DNA from: a virus
Lineage: Duplodnaviria; Heunggongvirae; Uroviricota; Caudoviricetes
Strand: one strand, 5' to 3'
IMG/VR virus record: IMGVR_UViG_2728369393_000007
DNA: 64,000 bases
This document shows, piece after piece, positions 14,306 to 17,293 of this stretch (the stretch's first letter is position 1; each line of letters begins with the position of its first letter). The notes beneath the pieces are model-generated. The model was given only the letters and a program-made list of their open reading frames with translations, made no database searches and was not told the DNA's origin. Position numbers and translations under genes: made by a program.

Positions 14306-14926
14306 TACCTGTATGGAGCACGGCATGTCCGGACTGGGCAGAGCGCCTGAAAAAGGGGCTGTCGATTATTCCGGCTCCGATTTATCCGGACCAGGCTGCA
14401 CATGCACTGGCGATTTTTAAACAACTGCGGATTGTGGATGCACCGGGTAGCCCGACATTCGGGGAGTCCTGTGCACCGTGGGTGTTTGACCTGGTGGCGG
14501 CCCTGTTTGGCTCCTACGATGCGCAGACCGGTGTTCGCCATATCAAGGAAGTGTTTATCCTTATCCCCAAGAAAAACTCGAAGTCCACGCTGGCCGCGGG
14601 GATCATGATGACTGCACTGTTACTGAACTGGCGGCAGGCGGCGGGTTACACGATTCTGGCCCCGACAGTGGAGGTGGCAGCCAACGCCTTCAACCCTGCC
14701 AGGGATATGGTACGACGGGACGATGATCTGGATGACCTCTGTCAGGTGCAGACACATATCCGGACCATCACCCACAGGGTGACGGACACCACCCTGAAGG
14801 TGGTGGCAGCCGATCCGAATACGGTGTCCGGTATCAAGTCCGTGGGGACGCTGATTGATGAATGAGGTAGCCTGAGTTTAACGGACACTCCTTCCTGAAA
14901 TAGAATGGCATCAGAAGGAGCTAATA

Positions 14927-15229
14927 ATGAGCAGAAAAACCCAACGTTACTCTAAAGAGTTCAAAGCCGAAGCTGTCAGAACGGTTCTTGAAAATCAACT
15001 TTCGATCAGTGAAGGCGCTTCCCGATTATCTCTTCCTGAAGGCACTTTAGGACAATGGGTTACCGCCGCCAGAAAAGGGCTCGGTACTCCTGGTTCCCGC
15101 ACGGTGGCTGAACTGGAATCTGAAATTCTGCAACTGCGTAAGGCGTTAAATGAAGCTCGCCTTGAGCGAGATATATTAAAAAAAGCAACAGCGTATTTTG
15201 CACAGGAGTCGCTGAAAAATACGCGTTAA
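14927..15229 (+). CDS. IS3-family transposase OrfA
   Basis: 100 aa, HTH; A7G slippery run at 15178-15184 near 3' end. Confidence 0.85.
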   Translation: MSRKTQRYSKEFKAEAVRTVLENQLSISEGASRLSLPEGTLGQWVTAARKGLGTPGSRTVAELESEILQLRKALNEARLERDILKKATAYFAQESLKNTR

Positions 15230-15264
15230 TCGAACAATGGCGACAACAATTTCCCATTGAAGCG

Positions 15265-16083
15265 ATGTGTCAGGTATTTGGTGTATCCAGGAGCGGTTAT
15301 TACAACTGGGTACAGCATGAACCCTCAGACAGAAAACAAAGTGATGAGCGGCTAAAACTGGAGATTAAGGTGGCACATATCCGCACTCGCGAAACATATG
15401 GAACCCGGCGGCTCCAGACGGAGCTGGCAGAGAATGGCATCATCGTTGGTCGTGACCGACTGGCACGTCTTCGTAAGGAGCTAAGGCTACGCTGTAAGCA
15501 GAAACGCAAGTTCAGAGCGACTACGAACTCGAACCACAATCTGCCAGTTGCGCCAAATCTGCTGAACCAGACGTTCGCTCCTACAGCACCAAATCAGGTC
15601 TGGGTGGCGGACCTGACGTATGTTGCCACACAGGAGGGATGGTTGTACCTCGCTGGCATCAAAGATGTTTATACGTGCGAAATTGTCGGCTACGCCATGG
15701 GAGAGCGCATGACAAAAGAGCTGACAGGTAAAGCCCTGTTTATGGCGCTCAGGAGCCAGCGCCCACCTGCCGGGCTAATCCACCACTCTGATCGAGGTTC
15801 ACAGTACTGCGCATACGATTACCGGGTCATACAGGAGCAGTTTGGTCTGAAAACATCAATGTCGCGTAAAGGTAACTGTTACGACAACGCTCCGATGGAA
15901 AGCTTCTGGGGAACGCTGAAAAATGAGAGCCTGAGCCACTATCGTTTTAATAACCGGGATGAAGCCATCTCAGTAATACGGGAATACATTGAGATTTTCT
16001 ACAATCGTCAGCGTCGTCACTCTCGTCTGGGGAATATCTCCCCGGCAGCCTTCAGGGAAAAATATCATCAGATGGCTGCTTAA
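15265..16083 (+). CDS. IS3-family transposase OrfB (DDE integrase domain; -1 frame relative to OrfA)
   Basis: DDE region …VWVADLTYV…HHSDRGSQY…CYDNAPMESFWGTLK. Confidence 0.85.
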   Translation: MCQVFGVSRSGYYNWVQHEPSDRKQSDERLKLEIKVAHIRTRETYGTRRLQTELAENGIIVGRDRLARLRKELRLRCKQKRKFRATTNSNHNLPVAPNLLNQTFAPTAPNQVWVADLTYVATQEGWLYLAGIKDVYTCEIVGYAMGERMTKELTGKALFMALRSQRPPAGLIHHSDRGSQYCAYDYRVIQEQFGLKTSMSRKGNCYDNAPMESFWGTLKNESLSHYRFNNRDEAISVIREYIEIFYNRQRRHSRLGNISPAAFREKYHQMAA

Positions 16084-17293
16084 AAAAAGAACAAATGGTA
16101 GTGTCCGCTATTGCCAGTACACCTCAGAACTGTGGCTGTTTGGCAAGCAGTACAAGGCGGAGGACATGTTACGTGAAGCCATTGGCGGGCTGGCTTCACG
16201 TCCGGAAGGGTTTGTGGTGTACACAACCACCCAGTCAAATGAGCCGCCTGCCGGGGTGTTCAGGCAGAAACTGCAGTACGCCCGGGATGTGCGCGACGGT
16301 AAAATTCATGATCCACATTTTCTGCCGGTGATTTTTGAGCATCCTCCTGAAATGGTGGAGAGCGGTGAGCACCTGCTGATGGAAAACCTCGCCATGGTTA
16401 ACCCGAATCTCGGTTATTCGGTGGATGAGGCCTTTCTGTACCGGGAGTATCGTAAAGCCCGGGAAGCCGGGGAAGAGACTTTCCGCGGTTTCATGTCAAA
16501 ACACGCCAATGTGGAAATTGGTCTTGCCCTGCGTTCTGACCGCTGGGCAGGGGCGGATTTCTGGGAGCAGCAGGGCAGGCGCGTCAGCCTGGACGATATC
16601 CTGCAGCGCGCTGATGTGGTGACGGTGGGGATTGACGGCGGGGGCCTGGATGATCTGCTGGGAATGTACGTGACTGGCCGTGACAGGGAAACCCGCGAAT
16701 GGCTGGGCTGGGGCCATGCCTGGGTGCATGAAACCGCGGTGGTCAGACGGAAGAGTGAGGCATCCCGGTTTCAGGATTTTGTGGCCTGTGGAGACATGAC
16801 GATTGTCCGTCGGGTCGGGGATGACACGGCGGAAGTGGCGGAGTATGTGCGTCGTATTCATGAGGCTGAGTTACTGGATCATATCGGTATTGACCCGTCA
16901 GGTGTGGGGCAGATTCTGGATTCACTGGCGGAAGCCGGGATCCCCGATGAGAGTGTGGTGGGGATAAGCCAGGGCTGGAAGCTGGGCGGGGCCATCAAAA
17001 CCACCGAGCGCAAACTGGCTGAGGGAGTGCTGGTGCATGGTGGTCAGCCACTGATGGCCTGGTGCGTTGGCAATGCCCGGGTGGAGCCTAAAGGTAACGC
17101 CATTCTTATCACCAAACAGGCCAGCGGACGGGGAAAAATTGACCCTCTGATGGCGCTCTTCAATGCGATGTTCCTGATGTCCCTGAATCCGGAACCGAAA
17201 AAGAAAGCGTATGAGGTTTTTTTCATATAACCCTGCTCACCCTGTAACCATCATGAACCGCTGCGGCGGTTTTTTTATTTTCAGGAGGCTGAT

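Follow-up and report, generated by a model that had tools for sequence, protein, structure and literature searches.

This locus raises the question of how a complete insertion sequence came to lie within the large-terminase gene (terL) of a lambdoid prophage, and whether a second, inverted copy of the same element upstream turns the two into a functional pair. The window, by which we mean the whole stretch of 64,000 nucleotides that was analysed, is the reverse strand of CP014670.1 (CFSAN004177): record positions 1-8485, once reverse-complemented, match window 47247-55731 exactly. It represents the ompW-integrated lambdoid prophage (PPompW) of the EHEC O145:H25 strain CFSAN004177; the 31-kb ompW prophage is designated P14 in CFSAN004176 and P02 in CFSAN004177 (PMC5567499). 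The explanation that we favour, with a probability of about 96%, is that IS600 inserted into terL of PPompW in the O145:H25 lineage with duplication of GAA, and that the upstream copy (copy 1) sits on a deletion. The features on which the analysis was based are collected in Table 1.

Table 1. Coordinates of the IS600 copies, the interrupted terL gene and the segment between the copies (positions in the window).
Feature	Position	Strand	Basis or detail
IS600 copy 1, left 367 bp (IRL and orfA), cut by the window edge	1-367	-	100% complementary to 14863-15229
ydaT remnant without its first 100 codons; right breakpoint of the 6,994-bp deletion	368-618	+	PGAP 'missing N-terminus'; breakpoint mapped against E2865
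Segment between the inverted IS600 copies, 14,495 bases	368-14862	+	RefSeq annotation of the near-identical CFSAN004176
terL 5' fragment: ATPase domain through the putative Walker-B motif LIDE187	14302-14862	+	Pfam TerL_ATPase; alignment to 6z6d_A
Target-site duplication GAA, left copy (TerL codon E187)	14860-14862		Single GAA in empty-site alleles
Complete IS600 (IS3 family), copy 2, in terL	14863-16126	+	1264 bp; 100% identity to annotated IS600
Left terminal inverted repeat (IRL), TGAGGTAGCCTGAGTTTAACGGACACT	14863-14889	+	Alignment of both IS ends
orfA, 100 aa, helix-turn-helix HTH_Tnp_1	14927-15229	+	Pfam PF01527, E=1.5e-20
A7G slippery run AAAAAAAG, predicted -1 programmed frameshift site	15178-15185	+	Within the orfA/orfB overlap
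orfB, ORF from first ATG, DDE/rve catalytic domain	15265-16083	+	Pfam rve PF00665, E=3e-26
Right terminal inverted repeat (IRR), reverse complement TGAGGTGTACTGGCAATAGCGGACACT	16100-16126	+	Alignment of both IS ends
Target-site duplication GAA, right copy	16127-16129		Single GAA in empty-site alleles
terL 3' fragment: remaining ATPase domain and nuclease domain	16130-17230	+	Pfam TerL_nuclease

The element within terL, copy 2, was 100% identical over 1264 bp to entries annotated 'IS3-like element IS600 family transposase' on many E. coli chromosomes and plasmids, and elements with the same full-length identity were found on plasmids of Shigella sonnei, S. sonnei 53G plasmid A among them. IS600 was first described in Shigella sonnei. 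Its published length is 1264 bp (PMC5567499). Judged by its sequence, copy 2 is IS600 proper and no mere relative, and the label 'IS600-like' in the original prediction was right about the relationship but too weak. The outermost sequences of the element are TGAGGTAGCC at the left end and GTACACCTCA at the right end. The terminal inverted repeats are imperfect, with 19 of 27 positions identical (TGAGGT...ACCTCA), and the termini read 5'-TG...CA-3'.

The frame of orfB is -1 relative to orfA, and its product carries HTH_21 and rve domains (Pfam), scored 334.7 bits against the NCBIfam model NF033516 (IS3 family transposase; cut-off 160) and contains the motifs WVADLTY, HSDRGSQY and APMESFW. A simulated -1 slip at the A7G run gave an uninterrupted 385-aa OrfAB transposase in which orfA and orfB are fused. 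PGAP annotated the corresponding span in CFSAN004176 (matching 14927-16083) as a single CDS with a 'programmed frameshift' and the same length as the simulated OrfAB. This frameshifted protein is the predicted product of copy 2. The orfA/orfB layout, the -1 frameshift, the TG...CA termini and the 3-bp duplication are all as in IS600 (IS3 family, IS3 group). No difference from IS600 was seen, and copy 2 is particular only in its site, codon 187 of TerL in a PPompW prophage. IS3-family elements move by a copy-out/paste-in route via a circular intermediate, and by family membership copy 2 would have transposed in the same way.

Re-inspection of the terL locus returned exactly the interval that the original prediction had given for a 1264-bp element flanked by GAA direct repeats (14860-16129), with matching terminal repeats and a GAA on both sides. 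The left junction between terL and IS600 reads GATTGATGAA followed immediately by TGAGGTAGCC. When copy 2 and one GAA were removed, the two terL frames (from 14302 and to 17230) rejoined in frame, as had been claimed, and the restored ORF was 1662 nt long and encoded 553 aa. The rebuilt 400-bp empty junction with a single GAA had 100% identical counterparts in five complete E. coli genomes, under the annotation 'terminase large subunit', and it was found at 90-99% identity in about 1,250 further genomes and in 93 phage records, mostly of Stx-converting and PPompW phages. Strain 14EC001 has an intact terL of likewise 1662 nt, which differs from the restored terL by 22 mismatches and no gaps and reads ...GATTGATGAACTGTGG... 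at the site, with one GAA. A 3-bp flanking match by itself has a chance of 1 in 64; the GAA pair is a true target duplication because the empty site with a single GAA was found. Copy 2 is a simple insertion, as originally proposed, and the empty-site alleles are identical around the site. Among further IS600 copies that were sampled, the duplications were CAC and CTG (3 bp) and CTAC (4 bp), and three copies had none; these lengths agree with the IS3-family norm of 3 bp and occasionally 4 bp. A literature search for target-duplication data on IS600 returned nothing.

The restored TerL aligned with the HK97 large terminase 6z6d_A (E=5.8e-10), with LIDE (residues 184-187) placed on ILDE, which from general knowledge of terminase ATPases we take to be the Walker-B motif. 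On this alignment, the duplicated GAA would be the codon of the Walker-B catalytic glutamate, E187. The first three bases of IS600 are TGA and place a stop directly after TerL codon 187. An ATPase domain with a Walker-B motif, in which D-E comes after four hydrophobic residues, and a nuclease domain in a single ORF, as in an HK97-like TerL, were found in the restored ORF only and are split in the window. No NCBIfam model matched the restored TerL, and the Pfam and PDB alignments were sufficient for the assignment. The insertion separates the N-terminal part of the ATPase from the rest of the protein, and this cut after residue 187 abolishes the packaging function.

The distribution of the insertion was assessed in a collection of 5,426 E. 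coli genomes. The junctions from terL into the IS and from the IS into ydaT were found in one of them, NZ_CP014583.1 (CFSAN004176, EHEC O145:H25), which is collinear with the window over about 55.7 kb, small indels aside. An exact look-up of the 187-aa TerL fragment in public assemblies revealed a third assembly, the complete GCA_003015325.1, with the same IS600 and the same GAA pair. The insertion was present in one of the 1,252 genomes of the E. coli collection that carry this stretch of terL, and it is common to three assemblies: the window (CFSAN004177), CFSAN004176 and GCA_003015325.1. It is specific to the O145:H25 lineage. The original description as 'probably recent' holds insofar as the insertion is lineage-specific, but only in relative terms, as it is shared by the three assemblies; the near-identity of all IS600 copies prevents any dating of the event.

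The same look-up returned nine short draft contigs from short-read data (loci L007-L015) that end within one base of TerL codon 187, at GAA, GAAC or GAG. These were rejected as evidence of insertion, as they contain no IS sequence and the GAAC end continues like intact terL. The contig ends are probably assembly-graph forks between paralogous terL copies, combined with a selection effect of the exact-length look-up. The nine contigs lie in somewhat different prophage contexts, and a recurrent insertion hot spot at codon 187 is possible.

At the left edge of the window, copy 1 is inverted relative to copy 2. The repeat finder reported 368 nt since one flanking A matches by chance; the perfect inverted repeat of 367 nt is itself far beyond chance. 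A repeat search detected no IS600 sequence in the window beyond copies 1 and 2. The location, the orientation and the distance of about 14.5 kb upstream all agreed with the original prediction, as did the statement that the pair brackets the replication-to-lysis segment. This segment contains the ydaT remnant, DnaT-like/O, P, paa, hokD, DUF968, rusA, Q, tRNA-Ile, tRNA-Arg, an esterase gene, holin, lysozyme, Rz, perC, HNH, terS and the terL 5' part; paa, hokD, rusA, Q, the two tRNAs, HNH, terS and the start of terL are thus enclosed as well.

Such a pair might be a functional unit, either as an invertible 14.5-kb segment or as a Tn10-like composite transposon that carries paa, hokD, the lysis genes and their neighbours. 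Two identical 1264-bp inverted repeats with 14,495 bp between them fit what is generally known of RecA-dependent inversion, and an adhesin gene, paa, lies within the segment. However, all three assemblies had the parental collinear order with the terL 5' part, the IS and the terL 3' part contiguous, and the GAA pair was still present around copy 2, so there has been no net exchange between the copies. Copy 1 is moreover accounted for by a deletion (see below), and GAT and GAA, which flank the pair on the outside, form no duplication and are both part of collinear prophage DNA, so the pair was not acquired as one unit. The composite transposon was rejected on these last grounds, and a functional unit of either kind is very unlikely.

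No inverted isomer of the 14.5-kb segment was found in the three consensus assemblies; minor isomers would show up only in reads. The proposal that the pair could mediate inversion survives as a generic possibility only, set against the parental orientation in three assemblies and the intact GAA pair. That the replication-to-terL segment, with paa and the Q-dependent late promoter region, behaves as a recombinationally invertible cassette in O145:H25 populations is very improbable; if it did, flipping of the cassette would alter the expression of prophage-borne genes in O145:H25. IS- and prophage-mediated chromosomal inversions in E. coli and Shigella likewise involve homologous repeats in inverted orientation, longer than 1 kb and able to recombine. 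In contrast to those cases, no inverted isomer was observed here, and since the repeats lie within a single defective prophage, it is hard to see what an inversion would change.

The favoured explanation instead places copy 1 on a deletion. The sequence to the left of the window was taken from the sister strain CFSAN004176 instead of the window's own record. There, copy 1 is a full-length element of 1264 bp and identical to copy 2, as would fit a simple insertion with a 3-bp duplication of its own, like that of copy 2. However, the target duplication that the original prediction had sought left of the window was absent: the flanks read ...CCCGGAT before the IS and TGTATTG... after it, that is, GAT on one side and TGT on the other. 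Its left neighbour is an integrase remnant and its right neighbour a ydaT remnant, both without their N-terminus. A syntenic ompW prophage whose early region is intact was available for comparison in strain E2865. In it, the two flanks of copy 1, one in int and the other in ydaT, are separated by 6,994 bp, such that copy 1 stands in place of E2865 prophage positions 7007-14000. The missing DNA comprises the first 237 codons of int, xis, exo, dicB, a repressor-like gene, cro and the first 100 codons of ydaT. A simple insertion of copy 1 is refuted for CFSAN004176 and has next to no chance of being correct. Copy 1 marks a deletion of about 7 kb and is not a simple insertion, and this deletion is the reason why it lacks a target duplication.

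In both CFSAN004176 and CFSAN004177, the prophage boundary as published is 1,315-1,316 bp to the left of the window start, which argues that both strains have the same structure to the left of the window; the window's own genome is thus very probably built in the same way. The deletion at copy 1 may have arisen either by recombination between two IS600 copies that pointed the same way or by an adjacent deletion mediated by the IS, and the data favour neither. A 'GAT' that precedes both deletion breakpoints in E2865 was considered as a clue to the mechanism and was dropped, as a 3-bp chance match is expected about 1 in 64 times.

Taken as a sequence of events, IS600 would have transposed into the large-terminase gene of PPompW in the EHEC O145:H25 lineage and duplicated the 3-bp target GAA, the presumed Walker-B glutamate codon, and the TGA from the first IS600 bases would truncate TerL after residue 187. 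The prophage would have been defective beforehand, or independently so, through the deletion of the early region at copy 1 and further downstream lesions, and both IS600 copies would be part of the published IS600 expansion of the lineage. This order of events is our inference; observed directly were which element it is and where it ends, the GAA duplication with its empty site, both breakpoints of the deletion, and how the copies are oriented in the three assemblies. Nothing contradicts the overall explanation. The idea that the terL insertion is an assembly artefact, with a multi-copy IS misplaced in a genome that holds more than 50 IS600 copies and in a record that has signs of closure problems about 40 kb away, near the record origin, can practically be dismissed, as three separate assemblies have identical junctions and the GAA duplication, and both halves of terL have been kept in collinear order, with one surplus GAA and no more, as after a real transposition.

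The terL insertion is ordinary, already-known biology; it is publicly annotated and is one of about 54 copies. PMC5567499 reports 53 and 54 chromosomal IS600 copies in the CFSAN004176/CFSAN004177 strains and a disruption by IS600 of the lineage's own IS-excision enhancer gene, iee. PPompW prophages are described as generally defective and as carrying IS insertions, and an Stx2a phage is integrated into PPompW of CFSAN004176 (PMC8112680). The prophage decay driven by IS629 and IS600 in EHEC (Ooka et al. 2009 via PMC5567499; Lorenz et al. 2017, PMC5567499; Nakamura et al. 2021, PMC8112680) likewise consists of IS3-family insertions in prophage genes with associated deletions. It immobilises prophages that carry effectors or adhesins, a feature shared with the present case. 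A difference is that in O145:H25 IS600 is the element that expands, and not IS629. The available text of PMC5567499 and PMC8112680 does not single out the terL insertion, although it is visible in public annotation. What is added here is the exact empty site, the putative Walker-B glutamate codon as the target, the presence in three assemblies and the partner copy on a 7-kb deletion. For PPompW, known to be defective and fixed in the chromosome, the insertion is one more inactivating lesion. Its value lies in being a clean textbook example, with an exact empty site and a duplicated codon for the presumed Walker-B glutamate, and it could act as a lineage marker in O145:H25 typing.

The other lesions of the prophage were also apparent. 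It has lost the 5' part of int, xis and the immunity region, its terL is split, and only fragments of its J and tail-fibre genes remain. A 454-aa portal ORF is directly followed by a 1078-aa tape-measure ORF at about 19434-24031 (gene calls of locus L006), and PGAP treats this pair as one 4.6-kb frameshifted 'portal' pseudogene. The head-completion, major-tail/tail-tube and chaperone genes appear to be deleted between portal and tape measure. The prophage is dead several times over, whatever an inversion does.

Smaller differences were seen in the same region. A 9-bp sequence, GCCGGGGAA, lies in the 3' half of terL (16467-16475); it is present in the window and in the intact alleles and absent from CFSAN004176 and GCA_003015325.1. 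Single-G differences in G-runs at 17420 and 20792 explain the capsid and portal genes that RefSeq calls 'frameshifted'. Both kinds of difference are probably long-read homopolymer errors or small slippage events.

Two observations concern the region around the origin of the public record. A segment of 906 bp (53247-54152), which is exactly the ATG to TGA of a DUF968 gene, is reverse-complemented compared to CFSAN004176 and to its own neighbours. No inverted repeats were found at its edges, and the inverted segment is also in the public CP014670.1, 1.6-2.5 kb from the record origin. We suspect an assembly or closure artefact. It would be very odd for an inversion in nature to run precisely from a start codon to a stop codon. 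Further on, the start and the end of the circular record CP014670.1 are joined between window positions 55731 and 55732. A DNA-methyltransferase gene is cut at this join and adjoins tail genes that are 98.6% like those of another CFSAN004176 prophage, whereas CFSAN004176 runs on at the matching position into tRNAs and stx2a. The join is either a real large deletion or recombination in the Stx2a-type prophage within PPompW, or a circularisation error.

The segments at 24337-27394 and 59466-63959 are direct repeats and 92-98% identical. They contain tail genes (minor tail L, C40 peptidase and J), belong to two lambdoid prophages and lie about 35-36.5 kb apart, and they are potential substrates for inter-prophage deletion or recombination. 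Short dispersed direct repeats of 74-127 nt with 69-92% identity occur at 28746-33235 and represent repeated C-terminal fragments of tail fibres; they are followed by a conserved terminator-like hairpin, AAAACCGGAGTCCGGCTCCGGTTTTT. The distal part of PPompW (about 30100-42700) carries the type III effector genes nleA, nleH1-2, nleF, nleG and espM1. This effector cluster holds remnants of IS256, IS630 and IS3-family elements and beyond it come the integrase and excisionase genes of a second prophage; this is the prophage-in-prophage arrangement that PMC8112680 describes.
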